A stretch of 42,961 nt of DNA from a virus (IMGVR_UViG_3300045988_175038), one strand, 5' to 3'; positions 1,785 to 42,830 are shown, counted from the stretch's first letter. A program made the numbers and translations. The notes: generated by a model not told the origin, from the sequence alone.

Positions 1785-4718
1785 ATGATCAAAGCAGAAC
1801 AAATTTACCAGGCAACCGATGACGGACTGGATATAATCATAGGATTATACCCGGACGCCAAGGAGTGCATACAGAAATACTGTTCGACTGGCACGCCTAA
1901 AAAGCACTTTGCCATTCGTAACGAAAAGACTCCTTCCTGTGCTCTCAAGAAGTTTAAGGACTGCTGGAAGGTAACCGATTTCGGAGGCGAAGGAGTCGCC
2001 GAGTCTCCGATAGACCTCTATATGAAGGAGAAGAATATCGATCGTTTTCCCGATGCCATCCTCAGACTAGCATCGGAGTATAATATTTCCGATGAGTTAA
2101 AGAAGGACGTCAACAAGCCTACGTTCGCCGAGCGTGATGCCACCATCGATGAGAAGGATGGCACTCGTATCTTTGAACTCAACGAGAAGTTTACCGAGGA
2201 CGAACTGAAGGTTCTTGGCCCGAACGTCAAGCAAGACCATGTAGATGCCCTCAACTGGCATTCCGCCAAATGGATAGGCTATGTAAAAGACCGCAAGGTA
2301 AAAATTAAGTACAGCAACGAGCACTACCCTATCTTTATGCGCGAATGCCTGGTTTCTCCTGCCGTAGGAGAGAAACCAGAAGTCAAGTTTTACAAGATTT
2401 ATGAACCGCTTAACTTCAGCAAGCAGTGGAGATTTTCCTACACTCCAGATGGTGTCAAGCCAAAGCAGTATATCAATGGTCTAGCGGAGCTGAAGAAGGC
2501 TTATCATGAGTTCAATGCCCGTGAAATGGCTGAATTCAACAAGACCAACACAGATGATTCCAAGGTATATAAGGAGAAGAAACTTCCAGAAGCCTTCATC
2601 TGCAGCGGTGAGCGTGACAGCCTTTGCTGCCGTTCTCTCGGGTATCACCCATTATGGTTTAATTCCGAAACCTATAAACTCAGTGAAGAAGAGTATAAGG
2701 AAATCATGAAGTATGTAGAGGTACTCTACAATATACCCGATATCGATGAGACTGGTATCGCAAAGGGAACAGAACTTGCGCTCCGCTTCATCGATATACA
2801 TACCATCTGGCTTCCCCAGTGGCTCCGCACCTATCACGACAATCGTGGCAAAGGACGTAAGGATCTCCGCGACTGGATGGAACTCCGCAATACCCGCAAG
2901 GACTTCAGGAACCTCATGACGCTGGCCATGCCGGCACGCTTTTGGGTGAGCAAGCTTAACAAGAAAGCCAACACCTGGGATCATTATATCGATACAGCGT
3001 GTCTGTACAACTTTCTTCGCCTTAACGGCTTCTATACGCTCCATGACGAGAACTCAACCATTACCAGGTACGTTCGTATCACCGGTAATATCGTCAAGCT
3101 CATCACCACGAGAGATATCCGTGAGTTCTGCCGTCAATGGGTCATCGATAGAGCTGAGAAACGTGACATCCTCAACCTGGTACTCAATACCCCGAAACTC
3201 TCAAGCGCAGCACTCGATTCGCTCCAGGAGATAACGCTGGATTTTACCAGCTATACCAATCACTCCCAGCTGTTCTTCTTTCCTCGTGTAAGCGTAGAGG
3301 TAGATAGAAACGGCTTAACAGAGTATCAGCGGGAAGGAAGCTCTCTGAAGAACTACGTATGGCAGGAGAATGTCATCGACCACAACTTCAGAAAACTGGA
3401 CGATATGTTTACCATCACTCGTACCATCGATGAAGATGGTAGACCGAAGTTTGATATCGAGATAAAGAACGTAAGTTCTCATTTCTTCGGCTATTTGATC
3501 AATACTTCCCGAACCTATTGGCGCAAGGAACTGGAATATAGATTCGAGGACAGAAGCATCGACGAGAAGGAGTCATACCATAAAGCGCACCTCTTTGATA
3601 TCGCCGGAGAAGGTCTGGATGAGAAGGAAGTCGCAGAGCAGAAGCAGAACCTGATTAACAAGATATTCACTTTCGGCTATATGCTTCATCACTACAAGTC
3701 ACCATCACGAGCATGGGCGCCTATGGCCATGGATAACAAAATCGGAGAAGACAACGAATGCAATGGCCGTTCAGGTAAAAGTTTCTTCTTCAAGACGCTT
3801 TCCCTGCTGATGAAGACCGTAAAACTGTCCGGACGAAATCCTAAGCTGATGGACAATCCTCACGTCTTCGACCAGGTAACCCAGCACACCCAGATGCTGC
3901 TGCTCGATGACTGCGACCGCTATCTCAACACCGGACTATTCTATGATAATATTACTTCAGATATGACTGTGAATCCAAAGAACAACCAGAGCTTCACCAT
4001 TCCTTTCGAGGACAGTCCGAAGATTGCTTTCACTACCAACTATGTGCCAGCAGACTTCGACCCGTCTTCAGAGGCGAGATTGCTTTATATGGTATTCTCT
4101 GACTATTATCACCAGCGCACCGAGGACAATGACTACCAGGAGACCCGAAGCATACGTGATGACTTCGATAAGGATCTGTTCTCTAAGACATATTCTGAAG
4201 ACGAATGGAATGCAGACATCAACTTTTTCTTGCAGTGCTGCCGATTCTACCTCTCATTGGCCGGAGAACCCATCAAGATACTCCCACCGATGGAGAACAT
4301 CGTGAAGCGCAAGTTCAAGGCTGATATGGGCGTTAACTTCGAGGATTGGGCTAGTTCTTACTTCTCTGAGGAGAGTGGAAGACTGGATCAGTTTATCGTA
4401 AGAGAGAAGGCATTTACCGACTTCAAGCAGTTCTCTGGTCTCAACAAGGCTACTACACAGAGCTTCACCAAGAAGCTGAAGGCTTTTGTTGAACTCTGTC
4501 CTTACGTTGATTCGCTCAACCCTTCAGACCTTTGCAACAGCCAGCATCGCATCATCAGAAGAGATCCTGCGCATCCTGAAGGAAGCCCAGTGGAGATGAT
4601 TTATCTCAGAAGCAAGAAGAGTGATTCTAAAGAAGAGGAAACTCAGGCAAGCAAGGGCGCTCACCAGTCGGAAATCAAATGGAGTAAGGAAGATTTTGAT
4701 AATGTAGAACCTTTCTAG
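1785..4718 (+). CDS. DNA primase/helicase fusion (Toprim-like domain plus P-loop SF3/D5-like NTPase)
   Basis: CSGERDSLCC and NIPDIDETG are Toprim-like acidic motifs. The Walker A motif is NGRSGKSFF and the Walker B motif is MLLLDDCD. The protein is 977 aa and lies in the early region. Confidence 0.8.
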   Translation: MIKAEQIYQATDDGLDIIIGLYPDAKECIQKYCSTGTPKKHFAIRNEKTPSCALKKFKDCWKVTDFGGEGVAESPIDLYMKEKNIDRFPDAILRLASEYNISDELKKDVNKPTFAERDATIDEKDGTRIFELNEKFTEDELKVLGPNVKQDHVDALNWHSAKWIGYVKDRKVKIKYSNEHYPIFMRECLVSPAVGEKPEVKFYKIYEPLNFSKQWRFSYTPDGVKPKQYINGLAELKKAYHEFNAREMAEFNKTNTDDSKVYKEKKLPEAFICSGERDSLCCRSLGYHPLWFNSETYKLSEEEYKEIMKYVEVLYNIPDIDETGIAKGTELALRFIDIHTIWLPQWLRTYHDNRGKGRKDLRDWMELRNTRKDFRNLMTLAMPARFWVSKLNKKANTWDHYIDTACLYNFLRLNGFYTLHDENSTITRYVRITGNIVKLITTRDIREFCRQWVIDRAEKRDILNLVLNTPKLSSAALDSLQEITLDFTSYTNHSQLFFFPRVSVEVDRNGLTEYQREGSSLKNYVWQENVIDHNFRKLDDMFTITRTIDEDGRPKFDIEIKNVSSHFFGYLINTSRTYWRKELEYRFEDRSIDEKESYHKAHLFDIAGEGLDEKEVAEQKQNLINKIFTFGYMLHHYKSPSRAWAPMAMDNKIGEDNECNGRSGKSFFFKTLSLLMKTVKLSGRNPKLMDNPHVFDQVTQHTQMLLLDDCDRYLNTGLFYDNITSDMTVNPKNNQSFTIPFEDSPKIAFTTNYVPADFDPSSEARLLYMVFSDYYHQRTEDNDYQETRSIRDDFDKDLFSKTYSEDEWNADINFFLQCCRFYLSLAGEPIKILPPMENIVKRKFKADMGVNFEDWASSYFSEESGRLDQFIVREKAFTDFKQFSGLNKATTQSFTKKLKAFVELCPYVDSLNPSDLCNSQHRIIRRDPAHPEGSPVEMIYLRSKKSDSKEEETQASKGAHQSEIKWSKEDFDNVEPF

Positions 4719-13956: not shown

Positions 13957-14481
13957 ATGAAGACTTTCAATTATTACGAGTACAACTCCAAGCGTTTCGA
14001 TACTTCAGCTGAAGCTGAGCAGGTGAGAAACTTCATCTTTGCCTTCAAGGATGGCAAGCAGTGGGCAACAAACTATGCTGCCGACATGGTGGTAAATAGT
14101 TTCGTAGATACCTATGGCGATAAAGCGAGCGACTTTGTTTTGGTGTGCGCTCCAGCTGCCAACAACAAGAAGTACTGCAAGCGTTTCAACCGCTTCGCCC
14201 AAAAGGTGAGCCAAGGCGCAAAGGTACAGAACGGCAACGAGCACCTTGCCATCTATGGCGAGCGCACAGCGAAGCACCTCAGCGCAGACCGAGTTTGCGA
14301 AGACTTCGGCTACAGCGTGAGACTCGACAGAGACTACTTCAAGGGAAAGAAAGTCATCATCTTCGACGATGTCATCACAAGCGGAGCAACCGCCAACGAG
14401 TTTGCAAGCCAACTCGCTGAATGTGGAGCACAGGTCATGGGTGCCATGTTCCTGGCAAGAACAAAAAGAATGTATAACTAA
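13957..14481 (+). CDS. ComF-like type I phosphoribosyltransferase-domain protein
   Basis: The PRPP-binding loop is KKVIIFDDVITSGATANE. The upstream LVCAPAANNKKYCKRFNRF resembles the ComF-family P-x-P...RGFN segment. The N-terminal zinc finger is absent. Confidence 0.7.
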   Translation: MKTFNYYEYNSKRFDTSAEAEQVRNFIFAFKDGKQWATNYAADMVVNSFVDTYGDKASDFVLVCAPAANNKKYCKRFNRFAQKVSQGAKVQNGNEHLAIYGERTAKHLSADRVCEDFGYSVRLDRDYFKGKKVIIFDDVITSGATANEFASQLAECGAQVMGAMFLARTKRMYN

Positions 14482-14497
14482 TCAAAATATAAACGAT

Positions 14498-15181
14498 ATG
14501 CGACAAAATTATAAAGACCTCTGCATGGAGGAAAGACCACAGTACAGAGCCTATAACCAAGGCTTCGAGACACTCACCAACGTGGAACTCATCTCGTTGG
14601 TACTCAATAGAGGAGCAGGCACACGTGAGAGCATGGAGCAAGCTAGGCAGATTTACAACGTCATGCAAGGCTCACTCAAGAACATCAAAAAGGCAAGACT
14701 AGAGGAACTAGAGGTTGTGCAAGGTGTGGGAGACTGCAAGGCGATAGCACTGCAGGCAGCTTTGGAACTGGGCAGACGCTACCAAATGGAAAAGGCTGAG
14801 AAGCAGCCAGCCCTAGGCAGCAGCATAGCACTCTACAGCTATCTCCGACCAATCGTGCAAGACCTAGATACTGAGCGGTTTTACGTCATACTGATGAACC
14901 AAAACTTTCGGCTCATCAAGTGCATCAACCTCAGTCAAGGAGGCATCACAGAGACTGCCGTGGACGTGAGACTCATCATGAAGGAAGCCGTGCTCAACAA
15001 CGCCACCATCATGGCAGTGGCACACAACCACCCATCTAACAGTCCACAGCCAAGCAAGGCAGACGACCTACTCACGCAAAAGATAGCCAAGGCGTGCGAC
15101 ATCATGCGCATCTTCTTCATGGACCATATCATCATGGCAGACGGCAGCTTCTACAGCTATCACGACAAAGGAAAGCTATAA
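14498..15181 (+). CDS. radC: RadC-like JAB/MPN metalloprotease-domain protein
   Basis: The JAMM motif is VAHNHPSNSPQPSKADD. The HhH-like segment LEVVQGVGDCKAIALQAALELGRR precedes it. At 227 aa it has typical RadC length. The first ATG of the track ORF is at 14498. Confidence 0.85.
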   Translation: MRQNYKDLCMEERPQYRAYNQGFETLTNVELISLVLNRGAGTRESMEQARQIYNVMQGSLKNIKKARLEELEVVQGVGDCKAIALQAALELGRRYQMEKAEKQPALGSSIALYSYLRPIVQDLDTERFYVILMNQNFRLIKCINLSQGGITETAVDVRLIMKEAVLNNATIMAVAHNHPSNSPQPSKADDLLTQKIAKACDIMRIFFMDHIIMADGSFYSYHDKGKL

Positions 15182-15838: not shown

Positions 15839-16278
15839 TGGCTATATATATCAAAGAAGGTGAAATCATAGAGGGCAAAAAAGCTGATGTCATTGCCAGA
15901 AGGGCTGAGTGGAAGGGACTCAAAGAGGAACCTATCACGGGCAAAAAGATGACATTATACGAACTAGACCGAAATAGTTCCGTAGAAATCACCGAAGCTC
16001 TTGAGCTCAACAAAGAGGACAAGAAAATACGAGAAGATCTCAACGTCCATGGCAATGTGGGTGACAAGATACAAGGCGATGCCATCAGGCTTTGGGTTGA
16101 CTCCAAAAGAAATTCTCTGAAGTTCAATACCAAGGAGGGCATCTCTGGCAGACATGGAGCCAACCTAGTGAGCACAAACAAGCGCACGGTGAGCAAACTC
16201 AAATATTCATTCGACAATTATAAAAAACTTTTCAAACACTCGGCTATCGAGTCTAACATTAAAGGACATATAAAATGA
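15838..16278 (+). CDS. Hypothetical protein (accessory cassette gene 2)
   Basis: A 146-aa ORF linked to the next gene by an ATGA overlap. Confidence 0.55.
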   Translation: MAIYIKEGEIIEGKKADVIARRAEWKGLKEEPITGKKMTLYELDRNSSVEITEALELNKEDKKIREDLNVHGNVGDKIQGDAIRLWVDSKRNSLKFNTKEGISGRHGANLVSTNKRTVSKLKYSFDNYKKLFKHSAIESNIKGHIK

Positions 16279-16667
16279 ACATAGATATTCTTGCATTGTG
16301 TGACTTTGCACAAGATAATGACGGCAAACTTACCATCGTGGGCACTTTTGACCACTATGTGGTAAGAAAAGCACCGCTGCCTAAGAGCAACCTCTTCATG
16401 GTAGCGAGAGTTAAGATGAACAGCGAGGAAAGCAAACTTCAGCAAGAGTTCTCGGCAGAGGTTACAGAGATGAGCACTGGCAAGATGATTCTTGGCCAGC
16501 CCATCAATTCCAAGATTGAGCCACACCCTTCAGATGAGTATCTCTTCAGCAACTTCATCTTCGAGTTTACTGACCTGCAGTTCCCGGCTGAAGGTAATTA
16601 TAAGTTTTCGTTCAAAATCGGCGACGTAGAGAACTCACTACCACTTAAGGTATATTTCCAGAAATAA
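16275..16667 (+). CDS. Hypothetical protein (accessory cassette gene 3)
   Basis: A 130-aa ORF that looks beta-rich (MNIDILALCDFAQDNDGKLTIVGTFD...). Confidence 0.55.
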   Translation: MNIDILALCDFAQDNDGKLTIVGTFDHYVVRKAPLPKSNLFMVARVKMNSEESKLQQEFSAEVTEMSTGKMILGQPINSKIEPHPSDEYLFSNFIFEFTDLQFPAEGNYKFSFKIGDVENSLPLKVYFQK

Positions 16668-29515: not shown

Positions 29516-30952
29516 ATGATAGACAAAAAAACTTTCGACAAGGCTCATGACGTTAACACCGTCAACAGCAACCAGTCATTCCTCATGACTGACCAAAAAG
29601 GCAACGTCACCAAGATACCGTTGTCCGCCCTCAAGGCTGACCTCAGCCTGGGCAGCCACACATGGTGCGGCAGAGTGTGGAATACAGCCAACGCCACCCC
29701 CAAGGCGGCCATGGTGGTCGGCGACCTCGATGTCCTCCGTGAGCTGCCGCTCACCCTAGGTCTCGGCGCTTACCTCGTCAAGAATGACCACAGCCGCCGC
29801 AAGCTCGATGCCACAGACCATTACAAGTATGCCACGGGCGAAGCCGCCAAGCTAGACGGTTCACAGGGCCACTACCAGTGGGGATGGGGCAGAGAGTTCT
29901 ACTTCGTCACCAAGGATGTCGGTGGCCTCCATTACGAGATGATCGGTCTCAAGCCTATCCCTGGCGAGTACAACTACAAGATCCCTATCGGCTCCATCTC
30001 CGCCTCAGGCTTCGCCACCATCGAGCGCAGCACAGGCAGACTCGTCAGCTTCATCAACACAGGCTCTGACTACCGAGGAGGCAACAACGATGCCTCCCTT
30101 GACGGCACCAACCGCACCCTCTGCGGCAAGCCGGCAAGCTCGCAGACCACAGAATACTTCCGTGCCGCCGCACGCAAGAATGGCAAGGGGTGGCTCTGCA
30201 CCACCATGCGACACACCACCATCATCGCCGCACTCATAGGGGTCATCATGGGCACACACTACGATCAAGATGCCGTCAAAACCGCCAAAGACTCCAACGG
30301 TCTCTACCAGGGCGGTCTCGGTGCAGGCACCTCAAACTTCAACTGGGATACCTGGGGCACTTACAACTCCTACCGCCCATTCCTCCCCATGTCCGCAGGC
30401 ATCGAGCTGGGCGACAGCGTGGGCGAGACTACCTACGCAGTCAAAAATGACGCTGGCACCACGGTCTACACAGCCAAGGTCTCCAGCTTCTTCGGTCTCA
30501 AGCACGCACAGGGCGGCTACCTCTGGCGCATGATGGATGACGAGCAGGTGCGCATCAACTCCGATACCACAGCCACACACCTCGTCGCACCATCCATCTA
30601 CGGCTCATGGACCATCGGCTCAGCCACGGGCATGAAGGCTTACAGCACATCTCCTGCCACAGGCGAGGGCTACATCACCCGACTCTCCATGGAGCATTTG
30701 GAGAATTTCGCCACGGCCGTCGGAGGCAGCGAGACCACATACTGGACTAGCTATTTCTGGAATACTTCCAAAGCTACGAGCGGTTTCCGTCTCTGCCTGC
30801 GTGGGTGTAACGCTGGCGATGGCGGTCAGTGCGGTTCTTCGACTCTCAACGTTAGCTATGGTGTCTCGTATGCCCACGGTGACGTCGGCGCCGCCCTCTG
30901 CGAAGCAGCATCCGAGTGGTCTGTGGAGCCAGAGTATTACGCAGCTGCCTAA
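29516..30952 (+). CDS. DGR target protein (receptor-binding or tail-fibre candidate) with a C-terminal variable region
   Basis: The VR occupies codons 423-461. The C-terminus reads GFRLCLRGCNAGDGGQCGSSTLNVSYGVSYAHGDVGAALC. It is the last gene of the fibre operon. Confidence 0.85.
   Translation: MIDKKTFDKAHDVNTVNSNQSFLMTDQKGNVTKIPLSALKADLSLGSHTWCGRVWNTANATPKAAMVVGDLDVLRELPLTLGLGAYLVKNDHSRRKLDATDHYKYATGEAAKLDGSQGHYQWGWGREFYFVTKDVGGLHYEMIGLKPIPGEYNYKIPIGSISASGFATIERSTGRLVSFINTGSDYRGGNNDASLDGTNRTLCGKPASSQTTEYFRAAARKNGKGWLCTTMRHTTIIAALIGVIMGTHYDQDAVKTAKDSNGLYQGGLGAGTSNFNWDTWGTYNSYRPFLPMSAGIELGDSVGETTYAVKNDAGTTVYTAKVSSFFGLKHAQGGYLWRMMDDEQVRINSDTTATHLVAPSIYGSWTIGSATGMKAYSTSPATGEGYITRLSMEHLENFATAVGGSETTYWTSYFWNTSKATSGFRLCLRGCNAGDGGQCGSSTLNVSYGVSYAHGDVGAALCEAASEWSVEPEYYAAA
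30782..30898 (+). repeat. DGR variable repeat (VR)
   Basis: It aligns over 117 bp to 31194-31310 with 11 mismatches, all at TR adenines. It is in frame within the target CDS. Confidence 0.9.
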
Positions 30953-30958
30953 AGTCTG

Positions 30959-30995
30959 CAAAAGCTTGCTGGGTGTCCAAAAGTTTGCTAGGTGT
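30959..30995. repeat. Tandem imperfect 18-bp repeat just after the target stop codon
   Basis: caaaagcttgctgggtgt (30959-30976) and caaaagtttgctaggtgt (30978-30995) match at 16 of 18 positions. Confidence 0.7.
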
Positions 30996-31016
30996 GCATC
31001 AGCATACAGGGCAACC

Positions 31017-31078
31017 GCGGCGTAGCCGCAAGCACCCAGCGAGCGCAGCTCGCACCCTCAGATACCGCCTTTGGCGGT
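31017..31078 (+). other. Three consecutive GC-rich triloop hairpins
   Basis: GCGGC-gta-GCCGC lies at 31017-31029, GCGAGC-gca-GCTCGC at 31039-31053 and ACCGCC-ttt-GGCGGT at 31064-31078. Confidence 0.6.
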
Positions 31079-31149
31079 CGGCGACCAAAATTTTTAGCCC
31101 ATATTGGCAAAAAAACGCTCTTTGACTTCTTTCCATCCGATTTTTTTAT

Positions 31150-31157
31150 TAACTTTG
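31150..31157 (+). promoter_or_regulatory. -7 promoter box TAACTTTG(C) driving the TR-RT transcript
   Basis: Matches TAnnTTTG 37 nt upstream of the TR start. No other box lies between the TR and the RT. Confidence 0.55.
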
Positions 31158-31193
31158 CAGTGGTTTTCTAACCAGGGTGTGACCCTTGGTGCT

Positions 31194-31310
31194 GGTTTCC
31201 GTCTCTGCCTGCGTGGGTGTAACGCTAACAATGGCGGTCAATGCGGTTCTTCGACTCTCAACGTTAACAATGATGTCTCGAATGCCAACGGTAACATCGG
31301 CGCCGCCCTC
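31194..31310 (+). repeat. DGR template repeat (TR)
   Basis: A noncoding copy of the VR rich in AAY triplets. By my count it has 23 adenines, 11 of which are substituted in the VR. The 88-aa track ORF across it is an artefact. Confidence 0.9.
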
Positions 31311-31557
31311 AACTTAAACACTAGAGACTCTCTTATACAGGGCTATCGTTTGCTACCCTGTTCGAGATAATAGGGTCAGTCCTCGCCCCATGGCGATACA
31401 TACACACACCAAGATTAGCTGGTAGATGATGACAATAAGGTCATCCGGTCGAAGGTTATGAACATTAAAAAAGCAGACACCATTTTTCCAGTGCAGGCTA
31501 TCTGCACAGATACACAGTTTACACAGATTATTACACAGACTTAACACCGCAAGAGTT

Positions 31558-33129
31558 ATGAGAAGGTTTGGCCATATCTCGCCACAGGTCGAGACACTCG
31601 ACAACTTCAGACGTGCATTCTACGACTATGCACGCCAGAAGATGCATCGCCAGTCGGTGCAGCAGTTCGAGGCAAACCTAGACCATAACCTAGACCGCAT
31701 GCTCGGGGCATACCAGTCAGAGTCCTGGCACACATCACCCTATGTGGCAAAAGACATCGACTATCCCAAGCATCGACAGGTCAACAAGCTGCCAGTGATC
31801 GACCACGTGATGCAGCATGCCGCCCTCGCACCTGTCGAGGCAGACCTGCGCCGCACCATCCATGGTCACAGCCCAGCTGGCACCAAGGGCAAGGGCACAC
31901 ATTATTTCTATCAGCTTGTGAAGCGAGACATTTTCTCCTCGCCACAAGCCGAGACCTTCTATTGCCTGCCCATGGATATCCACCACTATTTTCAGTATAT
32001 CGACCACAACCTGCTTAAGGCAGAGTACCGCCGCAAGATCAAAGACCGCAAGCTCCTCGCCTTCATCGACGAGGTGGTGGATAGCTTCAATCCCGGCATC
32101 GTGCTCGGTGTCAAGCTAGCCCAGCTCTTGGGGCAGCTCTTCCTCGCTCGTTTCGACTACCTCGCCATCCGCTGCTTCGACATCCTCCAAGATGCCGACC
32201 GCTTCCGCTATTGGCAGGCTCGCTACGTCAGCGAAATGCTCGTTACATGCCGCACACCTGAGCAAGCTAGACTGCTAAGTGGGGGGGTGAAATTCCTCAA
32301 TGACCGCTTCGAGCGGTTCTGCCAACAGGGGCTCAGCCATTATTATCGCTTCATGGACAACATCTACATCCTCCACGAGGATAAGGTGTTCCTCCGCCTC
32401 ATGGCAGAGCTCTCCGTCATGCACCTCGCCAGAGACTGGCATCTCTCTATCAACAAGTCATGGGGTGTCCATCGCACTTGCGATGGCATCGACTTCTGCG
32501 GTCAGATCATCTACGCTGACCACGCCCTCTTGCGCAAGAGATTCAAGCATGATCTCTGCGCACAGGTGGCAAAACTCCGCAAGCAAGGTTACTCAGAGCG
32601 TCAGATCCAGCTCAAGGCAGCATCACGCCTAGGGCTGGGCATACACGCCAACACAAAAAATCTATATAAGAAAATCGGTATGGAAAGATTTGGTAAACTC
32701 GTAAAGGCACGCCGTGCGCGCGTCCCTTTCGAGGGAATGGAGAAATCACAGCAGCAGTCCATCGAGGACATCATCTGCAGTGAGGGTCAGGATGAGAACA
32801 AGTTCCTCATCCAAGTCATAGATTACAAGGTCGATGACTCGGTCATTGAGAAGGAGACCGTGCAGGTCGAGGAGACTGCCGCAGACGGCAGCACCCACCT
32901 CGTCACCAAGGAGGTGCCCAAGAAGCGCCTCACCCTGCGCTATCGCATCATCGACCACATCGAGGGCACCACAGAGGTCTGGCAAACCACCGACCACTAC
33001 CTCTATACAGGCTCCAAGATCCTGATAGACCAAGCCCTCAACGACTTCTGTCGTGACGAGCTACCATTCTCAACCGTTGTCAAGGAGCTTCACAACAAGT
33101 TCAAAAAGAAGTTCTATAAATTCACATAA
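31558..33129 (+). CDS. DGR-type reverse transcriptase with a non-canonical motif C (FMDN) and a ~149-aa C-terminal extension
   Basis: The RT motifs in order are KLPVIDHVMQHA, AGTKGKGTH, LPMDIHHYF, GIVLGVKLAQLLGQLF, YYRFMDNIYIL and GIDFCGQII. It lies immediately downstream of the TR. Confidence 0.85.
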   Translation: MRRFGHISPQVETLDNFRRAFYDYARQKMHRQSVQQFEANLDHNLDRMLGAYQSESWHTSPYVAKDIDYPKHRQVNKLPVIDHVMQHAALAPVEADLRRTIHGHSPAGTKGKGTHYFYQLVKRDIFSSPQAETFYCLPMDIHHYFQYIDHNLLKAEYRRKIKDRKLLAFIDEVVDSFNPGIVLGVKLAQLLGQLFLARFDYLAIRCFDILQDADRFRYWQARYVSEMLVTCRTPEQARLLSGGVKFLNDRFERFCQQGLSHYYRFMDNIYILHEDKVFLRLMAELSVMHLARDWHLSINKSWGVHRTCDGIDFCGQIIYADHALLRKRFKHDLCAQVAKLRKQGYSERQIQLKAASRLGLGIHANTKNLYKKIGMERFGKLVKARRARVPFEGMEKSQQQSIEDIICSEGQDENKFLIQVIDYKVDDSVIEKETVQVEETAADGSTHLVTKEVPKKRLTLRYRIIDHIEGTTEVWQTTDHYLYTGSKILIDQALNDFCRDELPFSTVVKELHNKFKKKFYKFT

Positions 33130-33135
33130 ACGGTT

Positions 33136-33537
33136 ATGAAAAAGATTTATCCAGCTCGCAAGAGCTTCGTCAAATATGACGATGATCACTTCTTGCTCTA
33201 CCTCGGTGAGCAAAAAATAGAAGACTATCACCCGGAGACAAACACTCCAGGTTCTTCTTCAGACGACAAGTCCAAGGCAGCGGACAAGGGCATCACCGCC
33301 TTCAGCTACGAGGGCACAGAGCCAGACGGCTCCACCAAGATTGCAGCCCAGTCAGCAACCTACGATGACTTTGCCGCAGGTTTGGTTCGCACCAAATACA
33401 GCCAAAACCAGGTCGAGGCCATCCTGTGCAACCATGGCGATGGCAATGAGGAGCACCAAAAGGAGTATGACACCTTCCAGGCTTGGCGCATCCAAGCCAA
33501 GGAGATGGCTCATGAGGTGCTTGAGAGAGCGGTCTAA
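33136..33537 (+). CDS. Hypothetical acidic protein downstream of the RT
   Basis: A 133-aa ORF 6 nt after the RT stop, upstream of the terminator that closes the operon. Confidence 0.5.
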   Translation: MKKIYPARKSFVKYDDDHFLLYLGEQKIEDYHPETNTPGSSSDDKSKAADKGITAFSYEGTEPDGSTKIAAQSATYDDFAAGLVRTKYSQNQVEAILCNHGDGNEEHQKEYDTFQAWRIQAKEMAHEVLERAV

Positions 33538-35414: not shown

Positions 35415-38400
35415 ATGGCAAACAGTACACAAACATTCATAGGCCGGGTTCTGCTTGATGACAAACAAGCAAAACAGACTATCGCATTGCTTGAAAAGCA
35501 GCTCGAACAAGTTAAGCAAAAAAAGACTGATGCATTCAAAAAAGGAGATGACACCAAGGCTTTCGATAAAGAGATAAATCGAATAAATGCTTCACTCAAG
35601 ACATTGCGAACCAGCCAAGAGCAGGTGAATAGAACATTCAACAATCTTTCTTCTGCCTCATATAAAGAATTGTCTGTTGTAATGAAAACAGTACAAAAGC
35701 AGCTACGCTCAGGAGCTGTCGAGCGTAATTCTGAGGAATGGAAAAAGCTTCAGCAAAAGCTCAAAGAGGTTAAGCGAGAAATGAATGCCATCAATAGCGA
35801 GTCAAAAGAAACAACAAGTCTTTGGTCTCGTTTCGTTAACGTGCTCAATACCAACTGGGGAGCTGTATCGCAGATTATCGCTGCATACGCAGGACTCTCT
35901 ATGACCATCCGAAAATGCGCCCAAGCCTATGCCGATATGGAGGAATCCATGGCAAACGTCCGCAAATATACAGGTCAGACCGATGAAGAGGTTCACCGGA
36001 TGAACGAAGACTTCAAGCGAATGGACACCCGTACGGCTCGTGAGCAGCTCAATGAACTGGCTGGTTCTGCCGGTCGCCTGGGCATCACCAGCAAGGATAT
36101 GATTGAAGAGTTTGTTGATGGAGCCGACAAGATTAACGTTGCGCTAGGCGATGACTTGGGAGAAGGAGCGGTCGACAAGATTGGCAAACTTGCTCAGATG
36201 TTCGGGGAAGATAAGACCAAAGGACTCCGTGGTGCAATGCTCGCCACTGGTTCTGCCGTCAATGAACTCGCCCAGAATTCATCAGCCAATGCCGGATATA
36301 TAGTCGATTTCACCGCCGATCTTTCCGGTGTAGGCATCCAGGCAGGCATGACTCAAGCACAACTGATGGGTCTCGCTTCTGCACTCGATCAGAATATGCA
36401 GGAAGAGGCAACCTCTGCTACTGTGTTCTCTCAGCTTATAACCAAGATGTATCAGGAACCGGCTAAATTCGCAAAGATTGCCGGTGTAGAAGTCACGAAG
36501 TTCTCAAACTTGATGAAGACCAATGCAAATGAGGGATTGATGACATTCCTTTCTGCCATGAAGTCTAGAGGTGGGTTTGCTGAAATGGCTCCTATGTTTG
36601 AAGAGATGCAGCTGAATGGTACTCGTGCCGTTGGCGTTCTCTCTGCAGTAGCTTCACACCTGGACCAGGTAAGAACTGCCCAGGATCTCGCTACCCAGTC
36701 ATACGCTTCAGGCACAAGTGTCATCAATGAGTTCAATGTCCAGAACAATACTGTGCAAGCCCAGCTGGATAAGGCAAAGAAACGTTTTGAAGACCTCACT
36801 GTAGAACTGGGTGAACAGCTCATCCCAGTAACCAGATATGCCATCTCTACCCTGAGCATAGGCATACATGTGTTATCAACATTGATAACTTTTACGTTCA
36901 CCCACGTCAAACAGCTCACAATAATAGGTTCCACCATCGCTGTCTGCACGGCTCTTTGGTATAAGGAAACTATAGCCATCAAGCTAAAAGCAGCAGCTAC
37001 TACATACGCAGCTGCCATAGACAAAGCATATATAGCTACAACAACCCTTCTGCGTGCTGCCATGGTAGCCCTGCAGGCTACATGGGCGTATTTAACAAAG
37101 GGCGTGCAAGGCTATATCGTTGTAATGAGGGCAGCCCGCTTAGCCAGTCTTACTAATCCATGGGCCGCACTCGCCACCGTTCTTACGGTGGTAGGAGTTG
37201 CGGTTTATGGAGCTGTTAAAGCCTTTACTTCGTATAATGAAGCTATGCGTAACAGCACACAAGAAGCAAAGAACAACAGGGCGGTTGCGGAAGCACAGGC
37301 AAGTCTCGCCAAGAAAGTATCTGATGCAACTCTTGATGAACGCAACAAAGTGGATATGCTTAACAAAGTTATCCATTCCAACGCCTACACCGTAGATGAG
37401 CGCAGGCAAGCTATCGCAGCCATGCAGAAACTGGTTCCGGAGTATCATGCTTCTATATCCAAGGAAGGAAAGCTGTATAATGACAACCAGATTGCAATCC
37501 AGAACTATATCAAAGAGCTGGAGAACGCGGCGATGGCAGAAGCTATATATGAGCGCAAGGTTGAAATCAACAAAAAGAAACTGGAGCTGAAACTTAAAGA
37601 AAGTAAAATACGCCACTCTCTTAAAGCAGTTGATGCCGAACGTAAGTCACATCCTGAACGATATGAAAGCGAAGCTGTTGCAGATGCATTTACCGGTCAG
37701 CTCATTGAACAGAATGATGCATTAAAGAGTAATGAGAAGCAGAAGAAGATTCATACACGGAGACTCAAGGAAAACCTGAGCCTGCAACAGCAACTCAATG
37801 CAGAAGAGTCCTATTATAACACAGAACTCAGGAAGAATGCAAATCTCCAGAAACTATATAAAAAGAAAGAAAAGAAGAGTCTCCAAGACGAAAGCACAGG
37901 AACGAACAGAACAACGGGCTCTACCGGTCATTACACAACAGAGAAGGAGCGTAAAGCAGCCGAAAAGGAGCAAAAGAAGCGTGAAGCTGCTGCACGTAAA
38001 GCAGAAATCAAGCGAAAGGCAGACCTCAAAAAAGAGCTGGATGATGCCAAGAAAAGTACCGAGGCTCAGCAGCTGGAAGCCACTACCCTCTACTCTACCG
38101 GTCAGATTCGCCTGGCAGAATACAACGACCGCATGGCGAAGATTAAGGAGCAGGGACTTCAGCAGCGCATGGACATCCTTCGCAAATACGGAGAGGCTGA
38201 GAGTGAGGAGTACAAGCGTCTGAATGCCCAGAAAGAGAAGATCTCTGCCGATTATGAGCGCAAGCAGACACAAGACCTTCAGGACCTGGAGTACGACCGG
38301 CAAGTGGCAGAACAGGCCATCACTGCCGAATATTACAATAAGGACTCCGACCTCTATCATAACGAGAGTGCTATCAATGAGGCGCTTTTTCAACTCGACC

Positions 38401-39755
38401 AGACGTTTCTCAAAGAGAAACAGGCACTCTATCTGAAGTCCTCTGACGAGTACTGGCAGATAGCCCGAGAGATTGAGCGCAGTGAGCAGCAGCACCAGTA
38501 TGACCGCCAAAAGCAATACGATGACACGCTGATGCAGCTCAAGCAGGAGTATCTCACCCTCGGCAATGAACAGCAGATGCAGCTGGAGCTTGCAGGACTG
38601 GATGAGGTTCACAAGGCTGGTCTTGTAAGCGAAGAGGAGTATCAGCGCATGAAGATGGGCATCGCTAACAAGTATGCATCCTACAAGCCGGACGCCAAAG
38701 ATCAGGCAAAAGACGATGCAACCACCGCTCTCGATACCGCCAAGAAGATGACTAGACAGACCGATGACCGTAGCGGTTCGCTCGGATCAGATAATCTCGC
38801 CACCATTGCGGGAGGCGCCATTGCTGCCATCCAGCAGCAGAAGATGGTTAATGATAATCTTCAGAAGCTTCGAGAAGAGGATAAGATCAGCGAACAGGCA
38901 TACCAGGATGCCAAGAAACAGATGAATCAAGAGACCTATAAGAATATTGCAGCCATAGCAGGTGCAGCCTTCAGTAGTATCAGCAGTATGATGGGAGCAG
39001 CTTCAGCCTACTCTCAGGCATGTTCCGACCTGGAGGTAGCCAAGATTCAGGCGAACTACGACAAGCAGATTTCTGCTGCCGGCAATAACTCTGCCAAGAA
39101 GAAGCGACTCGAGGCGAAACGAGACAAGGAGATTTCTGCGGCAAAGACTAAAGCTAACAAGAAAGCGATGAAGATAGAGATTGCTCAAGCAGTCGCTTCT
39201 ACCGCTATGTCGGCTATCAATGCCTACTCTTCAGCTGCAGCAATCCCTACAGTGGGCTACATCATCGCCCCTATAGCCGCCGGACTCGCTACTGCTGCCG
39301 GTATGCTTCAGATTGCCACAATAAAAAAACAGCATCAGGCAGAGGCAGCAGGATATTATGAGGGCGGTTTCACTGGTCCCGGTCATTGGAAGAAAGAAGC
39401 TGGCGTGGTTCATGCAGGCGAGTTCGTGGCGAATCATAACGCTGTGAATAATCCTCAGCTCCTTCCTGCCCTTCAGCTCATCGATGCAGCACAGCGCAAT
39501 AATACCGTGGCATCGCTCACAGCCCAAGACGTAAGTCGTGCCATGGGAACTGGAAGCGCTGCCGTTGTTGCACCTGTTGTCAATGTTAATGCAGACAACG
39601 AACTGGTAGGTGCATCTCTCGATAACGTGAGTTCAACCATTGAAAGGCTCAATGAACAGCTCAATCTGGGCATCAAATCATACGTGGTCATTACGGGTCC
39701 AGATGGTTTCGACCGCAAATGGAGTCAATATCAGAAAATGAAATCAAACAAATAG
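35415..39755 (+). CDS. Tail tape measure protein
   Basis: It is 1446 aa with long coiled-coil K/E/Q-rich stretches, central hydrophobic helices (LSIGIHVLSTLITFTF, ALATVLTVVGVAVYGAV) and an Ala/Gly-rich C-terminal part. Confidence 0.85.
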   Translation: MANSTQTFIGRVLLDDKQAKQTIALLEKQLEQVKQKKTDAFKKGDDTKAFDKEINRINASLKTLRTSQEQVNRTFNNLSSASYKELSVVMKTVQKQLRSGAVERNSEEWKKLQQKLKEVKREMNAINSESKETTSLWSRFVNVLNTNWGAVSQIIAAYAGLSMTIRKCAQAYADMEESMANVRKYTGQTDEEVHRMNEDFKRMDTRTAREQLNELAGSAGRLGITSKDMIEEFVDGADKINVALGDDLGEGAVDKIGKLAQMFGEDKTKGLRGAMLATGSAVNELAQNSSANAGYIVDFTADLSGVGIQAGMTQAQLMGLASALDQNMQEEATSATVFSQLITKMYQEPAKFAKIAGVEVTKFSNLMKTNANEGLMTFLSAMKSRGGFAEMAPMFEEMQLNGTRAVGVLSAVASHLDQVRTAQDLATQSYASGTSVINEFNVQNNTVQAQLDKAKKRFEDLTVELGEQLIPVTRYAISTLSIGIHVLSTLITFTFTHVKQLTIIGSTIAVCTALWYKETIAIKLKAAATTYAAAIDKAYIATTTLLRAAMVALQATWAYLTKGVQGYIVVMRAARLASLTNPWAALATVLTVVGVAVYGAVKAFTSYNEAMRNSTQEAKNNRAVAEAQASLAKKVSDATLDERNKVDMLNKVIHSNAYTVDERRQAIAAMQKLVPEYHASISKEGKLYNDNQIAIQNYIKELENAAMAEAIYERKVEINKKKLELKLKESKIRHSLKAVDAERKSHPERYESEAVADAFTGQLIEQNDALKSNEKQKKIHTRRLKENLSLQQQLNAEESYYNTELRKNANLQKLYKKKEKKSLQDESTGTNRTTGSTGHYTTEKERKAAEKEQKKREAAARKAEIKRKADLKKELDDAKKSTEAQQLEATTLYSTGQIRLAEYNDRMAKIKEQGLQQRMDILRKYGEAESEEYKRLNAQKEKISADYERKQTQDLQDLEYDRQVAEQAITAEYYNKDSDLYHNESAINEALFQLDQTFLKEKQALYLKSSDEYWQIAREIERSEQQHQYDRQKQYDDTLMQLKQEYLTLGNEQQMQLELAGLDEVHKAGLVSEEEYQRMKMGIANKYASYKPDAKDQAKDDATTALDTAKKMTRQTDDRSGSLGSDNLATIAGGAIAAIQQQKMVNDNLQKLREEDKISEQAYQDAKKQMNQETYKNIAAIAGAAFSSISSMMGAASAYSQACSDLEVAKIQANYDKQISAAGNNSAKKKRLEAKRDKEISAAKTKANKKAMKIEIAQAVASTAMSAINAYSSAAAIPTVGYIIAPIAAGLATAAGMLQIATIKKQHQAEAAGYYEGGFTGPGHWKKEAGVVHAGEFVANHNAVNNPQLLPALQLIDAAQRNNTVASLTAQDVSRAMGTGSAAVVAPVVNVNADNELVGASLDNVSSTIERLNEQLNLGIKSYVVITGPDGFDRKWSQYQKMKSNK

Positions 39756-41666: not shown

Positions 41667-42830
41667 CTAAAGCCCACCTTTAAAGTGCTTAGTCTCCTCG
41701 TTTACTTTCATCTGGTTCTTGATATAGCGATTAGTCACAGATATATCAGAGTGTCGTGCCTGCTCCTTAGCAACAACTATACCTTGAGCATTGGCCAAGT
41801 CTCTAATGCCGGTATCTTTCAAACTGTAGAACTGATACTCCTTAGGAAAGCCTATGGCATCACGCATCTTGCCCCACTCTACTCGCAACTGATTATAAGC
41901 TGCTCTCTTTTCACCAGGTTTCAGACTCTTTCCGAAAATGTAGCAATGGCTAGGATGCTCGAAGATCTTCAGTTCTATCATCAGCTTCAGGATTTCATCG
42001 TTAAGGGCAACCATTCCGTCCTTGCGGTTCTTACTGATGGCAGAACTGATAAAGACAGTCTGATTCTTGATAGATACATCTCCGATCTTTATCTGGGTCA
42101 ACTCATTCGGACGGATGAAAGTATAATACTCAAAGAGACAAGCCAGAAGGAAATGCTTGTCATGAGTATAGAGATAATCCTTCATCTTCTTGAGAGCTCC
42201 AGGAGTCAATGGATTCCGGAACTTCTCTGTTTGCGCAATATTGCGAATATCGATGGCAGGATTCTCGGAAATATACTTTCGATCCATCAGCCAAGTACCG
42301 AACGAGACAAACCAGGAACGATAGTTATTCCTGGTTGTAGCTGATACATCACGATCATACATCAGATGATCCAGGAAGTCAATGGCAAAGGCTCGGTCTA
42401 TCTGATAAGCATATTTGATACTCCTACACTCCTCTATGAAGGTTTCGAGCATCTTGAGGCGGCTGAGATAGTCAATAGAGGTCTTTTCCTTCATCGACTT
42501 TTTATTAGTCATCGACTTAATATAATCTCTATATCTACTAAAAATTATTGGTATTTCCGTAAATTGGCGCGACTGGTCAGCATTCACCCATGGGTTCCAT
42601 CCTGCTGTCAATTTCGCAGTAATATTGTGAATAAGAAGACTGCCCATCATACGCTTTTTATGATCAGACTTATACTTGTTGAGCATATACTTCTTGCGCT
42701 TCATCACACCGGAAACTGGGTCACGAGCATAAAAGTCAACATACCAGTACCCGCCCTTGGTATGCAACACAGGAAGCGTGAATCCTACTATTTCACGCGA
42801 ACTCAAAAAATCGATTTCTTTTACATTCAT
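41667..42830 (-). CDS. int: Tyrosine recombinase / phage integrase
   Basis: The C-terminal catalytic pattern is FIRPNEL...SLKDTGIRD...ARHSDISVTNRYIK (R, K, HxxR, Y). It is 387 aa and its start lies 82 bp from the right terminal repeat. Confidence 0.9.
   Translation of the reverse strand: MNVKEIDFLSSREIVGFTLPVLHTKGGYWYVDFYARDPVSGVMKRKKYMLNKYKSDHKKRMMGSLLIHNITAKLTAGWNPWVNADQSRQFTEIPIIFSRYRDYIKSMTNKKSMKEKTSIDYLSRLKMLETFIEECRSIKYAYQIDRAFAIDFLDHLMYDRDVSATTRNNYRSWFVSFGTWLMDRKYISENPAIDIRNIAQTEKFRNPLTPGALKKMKDYLYTHDKHFLLACLFEYYTFIRPNELTQIKIGDVSIKNQTVFISSAISKNRKDGMVALNDEILKLMIELKIFEHPSHCYIFGKSLKPGEKRAAYNQLRVEWGKMRDAIGFPKEYQFYSLKDTGIRDLANAQGIVVAKEQARHSDISVTNRYIKNQMKVNEETKHFKGGL

Follow-up and report, generated by a model that had tools for sequence, protein, structure and literature searches.

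The diversity-generating retroelement (DGR) of BPP-1, with the order mtd-avd-TR-brt, transfers sequence from a template repeat (TR) to a variable repeat (VR) in the C-type-lectin domain of a tail-fibre protein, with changes specific to adenines. Its reverse transcriptase (RT), bRT, has the catalytic triad D138/D215/D216, and cryo-electron microscopy of the Bordetella ribonucleoprotein resolved an RNA arrangement termed the 'cPRT Stop', made up of an avd:Sp duplex, a stem-loop and A-minor adenosines, which has been predicted in 207 of 278 Avd-containing DGRs (bioRxiv 10.1101/2023.10.23.563531). The available sections of Wu et al. (2018, PMC5758913) place 29% of DGRs in architecture A, which is free of Avd, report C-terminal extensions of up to ~150 aa in about 20% of DGR RTs, and propose Avd-independent retrohoming. 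The RNA motifs RT-1 to RT-19 have been described merely as lying near RT genes; RT-10 is located between TR and RT gene in BPP-1, and Weinberg et al. speculated that other RT motifs serve DGRs (PMC5737381). DGRs are well known in gut Bacteroidales phages, including the Hankyphage group (Bacteroides phage p00; Benler et al. 2018, PMC6199706) and crAss-like phages such as cr52_1 (Buchavirus copri), and the presence of a DGR in such a phage is as such unsurprising. Here we describe positions 29516-33129 of the contig IMGVR_UViG_3300045988_175038, the whole 42,961-bp IMG contig being the window of this analysis. This region is very probably a functional DGR of a temperate, siphovirus-like phage of Segatella copri, with an RT that works with Asp-Asn at its active site and without a recognisable Avd. 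The lineage to which it belongs differs from characterised DGRs in the RT active site, in domain make-up and in its lack of Avd. The parts of the cassette are as follows.

29516-30952, plus strand: target gene, encoding a 478-aa tail protein whose C-terminal variable domain has a predicted C-type-lectin/FGE-like fold; last of the run of tail genes
30782-30898, plus strand: VR, codons 423-461 of the target gene, with 11 mismatches to the TR in 117 bp, all at TR adenines
31194-31310, plus strand: TR, non-coding, with 23 adenines and nine AAY codons; identical in 15 related loci
31558-33129, plus strand: RT gene, encoding a 523-aa protein of the DGR type by phrog_1423 and by its sequence and fold matches to bRT

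The cassette resembles that of BPP-1 in the adenine-specific transfer of TR sequence into the C-type-lectin domain of a tail-fibre protein, in the fold of the RT, in a mutational density of about 50%, and in an RNA duplex flanking the TR that is followed by a stem-loop and adenosines. It differs in having no Avd, in carrying RFMDN where BPP-1 has YMDD, in an RT enlarged by a helical insertion of ~50 aa ahead of motif C and by a C-terminal domain of ~130 aa, and in the spacer RNA, which is RT-17 here and RT-10 in BPP-1. Sequence identity is only ~22%. An initiation of mutagenic homing (IMH) element or cruciform is not demonstrable in the window.

The VR and TR align without gaps at an offset of +412, and at each of the 11 mismatches the TR has A, opposite G eight times, T twice and C once in the VR. 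The original prediction, made from the DNA sequence, had given this alignment with its length, mismatch count, offset and codon range, had claimed that all mismatches lie at adenines, and had placed ten of the 11 changes in codon positions 1 and 2; all of these details were reproduced on realignment, which revealed no non-A mismatch, and the exception in codon position is 30829, a third position. If 11 positions were drawn at random from the 117, the hypergeometric probability that all would fall on the 23 TR adenines is 1.6e-9. With nine AAY codons in the TR, about 1.2e13 peptides are possible. Similarity between the repeats begins abruptly at 30782/31194 and stops after the shared GC-rich end CGGCGCCGCCCTC, beyond which the VR continues with TGCGAAGC and the TR with AACTTAAA; these flanks differ between the two repeats and are each conserved in the family (TGCGAA after the VR, AACTT after the TR). 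No further VR-like copy was found elsewhere in the window.

Related loci were fetched via the RT, yielding 79 loci from IMG/VR and 42 from GTDB genomes. In the 15 loci with exactly the TR of the window, the target gene is at least 98.6% identical upstream of the VR, and the VRs vary at all 23 TR-adenine positions and nowhere else, save for the last 3 nt of one rearranged copy; 12 distinct VRs were counted among 15 full-length copies compared (the window and 14 loci). The 90%-identity cluster of the target protein comprises 3002 distinct member sequences. Comparison of 15 of these members, with two N-terminal lineages set aside, gave hypervariable columns at 432, 434, 435, 438, 443, 445, 447-449, 452, 454, 456 and 457, which are exactly the codons with TR adenines and hold up to seven residues per column, the sole off-adenine exception being G455D in one member. 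The population test suggested along with the original prediction, confinement of variation to positions opposite TR adenines, was therefore passed by the identical-TR loci as well as by the cluster members. Across 107 TR/VR pairs of the family, TR adenines account for 1139 mismatches (A>G in 587 cases, A>T in 363 and A>C in 188) and all other positions for 47, and 48% of all TR adenines are substituted. This value agrees with the density of ~50% reported for Bacteroides and Bordetella DGRs (bioRxiv 10.1101/2024.11.15.621889). The variation is directional, adenine-specific and recurrent, which is mutagenic retrohoming, the mechanism whose signature had been claimed for this locus. Two relatives have damaged VRs (L003 and L004). 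In L003 (about 3262-3340), the VR has lost 39 nt in frame, the equivalent of TR positions 53-91, and then runs in register to the GC-rich end; the deletion may be the product of a template jump or of a truncated cDNA.

The target open reading frame (ORF) matches phrog_5302 ('tail protein', 6.7e-45) and is preceded by other tail and tail-fibre genes; neither the target nor the tail genes beside it had a Pfam match. The AlphaFold2 (AF2) model of the protein (predicted local distance difference test score, pLDDT, 90) finds its best PDB matches in TaqVP (5vf4, E 6e-7) and Mtd (1yu4, 1e-3), both of them variable proteins of DGRs, with non-significant matches to PvdO, which resembles the formylglycine-generating enzyme (FGE), at 5.7e-2 and to TvpA at 1.6. 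The template modelling (TM) scores are low (0.35/0.42), a modest level attributed to the extra N-terminal domains. A check for a lectin-like fold had been proposed with the original prediction, and the modelled structure supports a C-type-lectin/FGE-like fold for the variable domain. The VR is situated at the 3' end of this lectin-fold gene, as is characteristic of DGRs.

The ORF downstream of the TR, which had been called an RT from the sequence, is an RT of the DGR type as judged by its match to bRT in sequence and fold and by its motif B. It matches phrog_1423 ('Reverse transcriptase', 2.7e-52), and its best PDB sequence match is bRT of Bordetella (8ub7, E 6e-10). The AF2 model (pLDDT 87) is most similar to bRT in the active state (8ub7_A, E 3.5e-18, TM-score 0.89 normalised to bRT, root-mean-square deviation 2.9 Å), with group II intron RTs, G2L4, DRT9 and retron RTs ranking lower; the only NCBIfam match is a sub-threshold one to a group II RT. 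Motif A has D140 (MDIHHYF), and motif B reads LGVKLAQ, with Ala for the Ser of [LIV]GxxxSQ (LG[VI]Kx[SAT]Q in the family). Motif C reads RFMDN (D267, N268). This non-canonical motif, DN for DD, is a feature beyond the description in the original prediction: HMMER aligns RYMDDIVVL of bRT opposite RFMDNIYIL, and hhalign places RYCDD of the Hankyphage RT opposite RFMDN, the second aspartate of YxDD thus corresponding to Asn268.

The DN pair is present in 43 of 44 diverse members of the RT family, down to ~37% identity, and the Asp of motif A, the first Asp of motif C and the DGR-type motif B are invariant among them. Among the 107 adenine-mutagenic cassettes, 105 have a DN-type RT, and the other two were unscorable, so that none has DD. 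A search of 1.84 billion representative proteins returned about a dozen full-length representatives that align unbroken across the insertion between motifs B and C; of these, the insertion-carrying sisters P0286, P0288, P0290, P0293, P0294 and P0310 retain DD, and ordinary DGR RTs, which align in two stretches, also have DD. This distribution points to DN as a derived state that has been stably kept. A single transition (AAY to GAY) would restore the Asp, and the retention of DN in spite of this suggests purifying selection on a working protein, with the DN enzyme itself as the probable polymerase. In a literature search on RT motifs, conducted with limited search tools, no mention of a DN active site was found, nor do the available sections of PMC5758913 mention one among the DGRs surveyed there. 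As RTs of this kind have no Pfam RVT_1 match and are labelled hypothetical in public records, the lineage is easily missed.

Two further parts set this RT apart. The insertion consists of four helices of ~50 aa in total (residues ~206-257), and the protein ends in a beta-rich C-terminal domain of ~130 aa (~390-523) with no detectable relatives. Residues 216-232 (RYWQARYVSEMLV), which HMMER aligned to RHWARYMDDIVV of bRT, were considered as a relic duplicate of motif C and dropped, as AF2 predicts helices there. Homology of the C-terminal domain to the extension of the Hankyphage RT was likewise rejected (BLASTP E 0.83; hhalign E 0.04, with only the last 25 residues aligned). In one locus of the Bacteroides thetaiotaomicron type (L128, 3355-4998), the RT is broken into two ORFs, one of 394 aa and one of 151 aa, and looks degenerate.

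Several observations weigh against a functional DGR at this locus. The activity of the window copy is inferred from its relatives. In two of these, from IMG/VR (L002 3224-3340 and L009 3225-3341), the VR matches the TR exactly, none of the 23 adenines being changed, which could reflect non-mutagenic homing, a recent reset, or an assembly artefact or collapse. The RT ORF has no Pfam match to RVT_1 even at E 0.1, and the canonical catalytic triad is incomplete, with N268 in place of the second Asp of motif C. Pfam detected no Avd in the ORF next to the RT gene or in a further 20 small ORFs in the window, and Avd is essential in the Bordetella system. Sequence and hairpin scans near the VR did not demonstrate a cruciform or IMH-type element.

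These points leave a small place for a fossil DGR, in which the cassette was active in an ancestor, the window copy is inert, and the differences between VR and TR are historical. Such decay would be in keeping with evidence of activity that comes from relatives rather than from the window contig, with the non-canonical RT active site, and with the existence of degenerate copies in the family (the split RT of L128 and the damaged VRs of L003 and L004). Every part is intact in the window, however, phages with differing VRs carry copies of the RT at 99-100% identity, and the fixation of DN down to ~37% identity, despite reversal by a single transition, argues for purifying selection; we therefore consider a fossil quite unlikely. 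Still less probable, in our estimation, is that the DN protein is an RNA-binding or structural factor and that another RT, from the host or from a co-resident element, makes the cDNA. In canonical RTs, losing the second Asp of motif C is usually considered inactivating, and bRT has the full triad. Against this, no second RT was found among the ORFs scanned in the window (the ten largest, the six of the tail and DGR region, and 20 small ones, out of a larger total), and the cassette, in several Bacteroidales families, always has its own TR and RNA motif followed directly by this RT, with the two remaining motif aspartates and motif B invariant. Polymerases with Asn at the equivalent place also exist, as the RNA polymerases of mononegaviruses have GDN in motif C. 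For the RT of Ty1, the equivalent D211N substitution retained polymerase activity in vitro, according to the available part of the report (PMC2148107). An ordinary repeat, produced by duplication or recombination and then diverged by neutral drift without any retroelement, would account for the existence of a 117-bp repeat and nothing more, and is refuted by the placement of all 11 differences on adenines of one copy (P about 1e-9), by the same asymmetry in the 107 pairs (1139 vs 47), and by a TR that is invariant while the VR is hypervariable.

The interval between the target gene and the RT gene contains the following elements.

31118-31126 and 31150-31157, plus strand: promoter-like boxes for the TR-RNA, CTCTTTGAC and a Bacteroidetes-type -7 box TAACTTTG, respectively, assigned by conservation
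31162-31173, plus strand: hairpin in the 5' leader of the TR-RNA (GGTT-TTCT-AACC); relatives have one there too, with differing stem sequences
31175-31179, plus strand: GGKTG motif after the leader hairpin, an anchor (GG[GTC]TG) conserved in related loci
31180-31186, plus strand: 5' strand (UGACCCU) of a long-range helix, pairing with 31372-31378
31337-31361, plus strand: stem-loop just 3' of the TR (ACAGGG ... CCCTGT, with GTTTGCT in the loop), read from the sequence by eye
31372-31378, plus strand: 3' strand (AGGGUCA) of the long-range helix, directly 5' of RT-17
31379-31480, plus strand: RNA motif RT-17 (Rfam RF03020), 69.8 bits against a gathering score of 40.4

A promoter box belonging to the TR itself had been noticed in the original prediction, and its conservation agrees with this: 23 of 24 loci compared have a TAnnTTTG box 31-53 nt upstream of the TR, and a box resembling CTTTGAC, at 31118-31126 in the window, is present upstream of the TR in most related loci. 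A scan for the sigma-70 consensus gave nothing at the TR promoter, as expected for Bacteroidota. The long-range helix encloses the TR and is followed by a short stem-loop (P1 of RT-17) and an A-rich stretch. Across 21 distinct sequences, whose alignment relied on anchors and not on complementarity, pairing at the seven core pairs is 95-100%, and every one of these pairs shows changes on both sides. The helix occurs in at least ten different sequences, and slid controls pair at 38-57%. By analogy, the strand at 31180-31186 would correspond to the avd strand in the Bordetella 'cPRT Stop' duplex, its function being a prediction. The stem just downstream of the TR also differs between relatives (GTGGG/CCCAC, CTGCAG/CTGCAG, TCCGGC/GCCGGA and GCACGG/CCGTGC, judged by eye).

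RT-17 is present in full length, from model position 1 to 95 of 95, making the window a full-length member of the Rfam family (Weinberg et al. 2017). Its parts are the hairpin P1 (31384-31395), a linker rich in A, the interrupted stem-loop P2 and a tail, AAAAGCAGACA, that is conserved. Ten of 15 genome loci have the motif at the equivalent position, and a custom model found it in 33 of the 48 family loci searched as well as in the window. In the model-fitted alignment, 93.9% of the cells are paired and nine of 12 pairs change on both sides, in comparison with 21-37% pairing in slid controls. As published, RT-17 lies near RT genes, and a role in retrons or DGRs was suggested in general terms; here it is located between TR and RT gene in an adenine-mutagenic DGR, with a long-range helix in front of it that the Rfam model does not include. 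We interpret it as the 'spacer' part of the DGR RNA, and its position supports service to a DGR. A literature search for 'RT-17' returned only irrelevant papers. The conserved GACC of RT-17 at 31379-31382 is complementary to a likewise conserved GGUC in the internal loop of P2 (31449-31452); covariation of this potential tertiary pair is mixed across loci, and inspection by eye was not convincing. Equally unconvincing by eye was a template:primer duplex between the 3' flank of the TR and the spacer, and the priming nucleotide is not identifiable from sequence.

The cycle that we propose builds on adenine-specific TR-to-VR variation in this copy and in the population, on the folds of the RT and target, and on RNA helices that covary; from BPP-1 it borrows, by analogy, cis-priming, the helix's function as a stop, integration and the binding of a receptor. 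Transcription from the Bacteroidetes-type promoter (about 31118-31157) would produce an RNA with a leader, the 117-nt TR, a structured spacer including RT-17, and probably the RT mRNA. On folding, the helix 31180-31186/31372-31378 would bracket the TR, with the stem-loop and A-rich stretch directly after it, in a fold resembling the cPRT Stop, which in Bordetella sets the template in place for cDNA synthesis primed in cis and also brings that synthesis to an end. The 523-aa RT would then copy the TR into cDNA with misincorporation opposite adenines, at about half of them per event, and the cDNA would replace the VR at 30782-30898, at the 3' end of the tail-protein gene. Each replacement would thereby rewrite 13 codons on the predicted ligand-binding face of the C-type-lectin-like domain, with up to ~1e13 protein variants, and probably alter receptor binding.

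The original prediction had noted that both repeats end in the same GC block, after which similarity stops, and had likened this block to an IMH; the shared end stands, and the role in target recognition is not demonstrable. The junction between VR and flank has only a weak 4-bp hairpin (CTGC-GAA-GCAG) at the end of the VR, within conserved coding sequence. No cruciform 3' of the VR was reported by an inverted-repeat tool, and a custom hairpin scan near the VR gave only GC hairpins 119-180 nt downstream.

31017-31078, plus strand: three GC-rich hairpins with 3-nt loops (31017-31029, 31039-31053 and 31064-31078), between the target stop codon and the TR promoter

Neither a generic intrinsic-terminator scan nor the repeat tool reported these intergenic hairpins. 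Two or three hairpins occupy equivalent positions in the related loci, with stem sequences that differ between lineages, and in the window as in these loci they are preceded by the conserved motif AAGCACCC (also given as AAAGCACCC). They are probably the terminator of the tail operon, and some role in target recognition is conceivable. The terminator reading does not account for the conserved single-stranded motif AAAGCACCC in front of them.

The original prediction called the cassette a complete DGR, which is correct in the minimal sense of target, TR and RT and does not extend to an Avd, none being detectable. One small gene is nevertheless closely linked to the RT.

33136-33537, plus strand: gene for a 133-aa acidic protein, starting 6 nt after the RT stop codon; candidate accessory gene

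A homologue of this protein directly follows the RT in 115 of 124 loci, and one also follows it in prophages of the Bacteroides thetaiotaomicron type in which the next gene is a different one. The protein has no match in Pfam or the PDB. The family has a median isoelectric point (pI) of 4.6, in comparison with ~9.5 given for canonical Avd in the available sections of Wu et al. (PMC5758913). Descent from Avd, or kinship with the 'Avd' of Hankyphage, was considered and is unsupported by BLASTP, hhalign, a PDB profile search and Pfam. The protein is a candidate accessory factor, and conserved phage synteny explains its linkage to the RT equally well.

Of the systems introduced above, Hankyphage is the one to which the original prediction had pointed as a possible relative. 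Both are temperate gut phages of Bacteroidales, share the order tail-fibre target, TR, RT and small acidic ORF, and have an RT with a C-terminal extension, of which the last 25 residues align weakly. The window phage is nevertheless not a Hankyphage: megablast of 29516-33129 against 50,697 phage records gave no nucleotide match, and the Hankyphage RT is ~24% identical by tblastn (27% in a profile alignment), has the canonical YCDD and is without the insertion. Hankyphage is moreover a transposable phage according to the available part of PMC12135933, whereas the window phage has a tyrosine integrase, and the ORF downstream of the Hankyphage RT encodes a DUF4376 protein with no detectable similarity to the 133-aa protein. 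In Bacteroides phage jmh72_hp, a Hankyphage (L122, 4302-4787), an ORF annotated as 'Avd' matches Pfam DUF4376 (1.3e-5) and has a pI of 4.7; being acidic, it does not represent a canonical Avd of the four-helix-bundle kind.

Architecture A1 (target-TR-RT) and lineage 3 of Wu et al. likewise have no accessory genes, as far as the available sections describe them (PMC5758913). The crAss-like phage cr52_1 (Buchavirus copri) is, like the window phage, a gut phage of Bacteroidales and encodes a tail protein resembling Mtd or sulfatase beside the RT. The cr52_1 RT is among the nearest matches in the phage collection (28% identity); it differs in its canonical RYADD, its short length (341 aa) and its occurrence in a lytic, podovirus-like phage, and the custom RT-17 model gave no match in the cr52_1 locus. 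The annotated RT of cr52_1 (L124, 2501-3526) shows several in-frame stops, consistent with stop-codon reassignment.

The locus provides a clean, population-validated DGR in phages of Segatella copri, a gut species that is both major and hard to study. It also offers natural evidence that a lineage of DN-type RTs performs adenine mutagenesis at the normal density of ~50%, which bears on the role of the third catalytic carboxylate in RTs. The orphan Rfam motif RT-17 can be assigned to a DGR, and the 'cPRT Stop' architecture, so far surveyed only in Avd-containing DGRs, appears to be kept in a lineage without Avd, which sharpens the question of what replaces Avd. A broader reading, which we put forward tentatively and with more doubt than conviction, is that these loci form a distinct and widespread DGR lineage of Bacteroidales phages, Avd-free and with a natural Asp-Asn RT, in which RT-17 and the duplex resembling the cPRT Stop would act as the scaffold for priming and termination and the RT's own C-terminal domain, the 133-aa protein or both may be a new accessory factor. 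Should this reading hold, the second aspartate of motif C would be dispensable for a natural RT, and the Asn may even aid metal use or fidelity.

RT copies that are 84-100% identical to that of the window come from metagenome-assembled genomes (MAGs) and isolates of Segatella copri, and more distant copies from genomes of Prevotella, Phocaeicola, Alistipes, Parabacteroides and Muribaculaceae; nothing specific on DGR prophages of S. copri was found in the literature. The cassette also occurs in MAGs labelled Candidatus Paceibacterota and Roseburia sp. (L092, JBAZIG010000228.1, and P0486), labels that are probably binning errors. That the contig derives from a temperate phage of Bacteroidota, as first proposed from the sequence, is upheld by its integrase and by prophage copies in S. 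copri isolates. Genes for a tyrosine integrase, a tape measure protein and a head protease lie in the window, along with a weak terminase match; the lysis module comes after the DGR, and there are no tRNA genes. The tape measure gene (35415-39755) lies after the tail-fibre, DGR and lysis genes and beside the integrase gene (41667-42830), suggesting that the contig is probably permuted or in prophage order rather than in packaging order. In the early region, an ORF with a phosphoribosyltransferase domain (13957-14481) and one with a RadC-like JAB domain (14369-15181) overlap by ~110 nt. Further ORFs encode a DUF6941 protein (16275-16667) and, on the minus strand, a Cro/C1-type helix-turn-helix protein (197-574).

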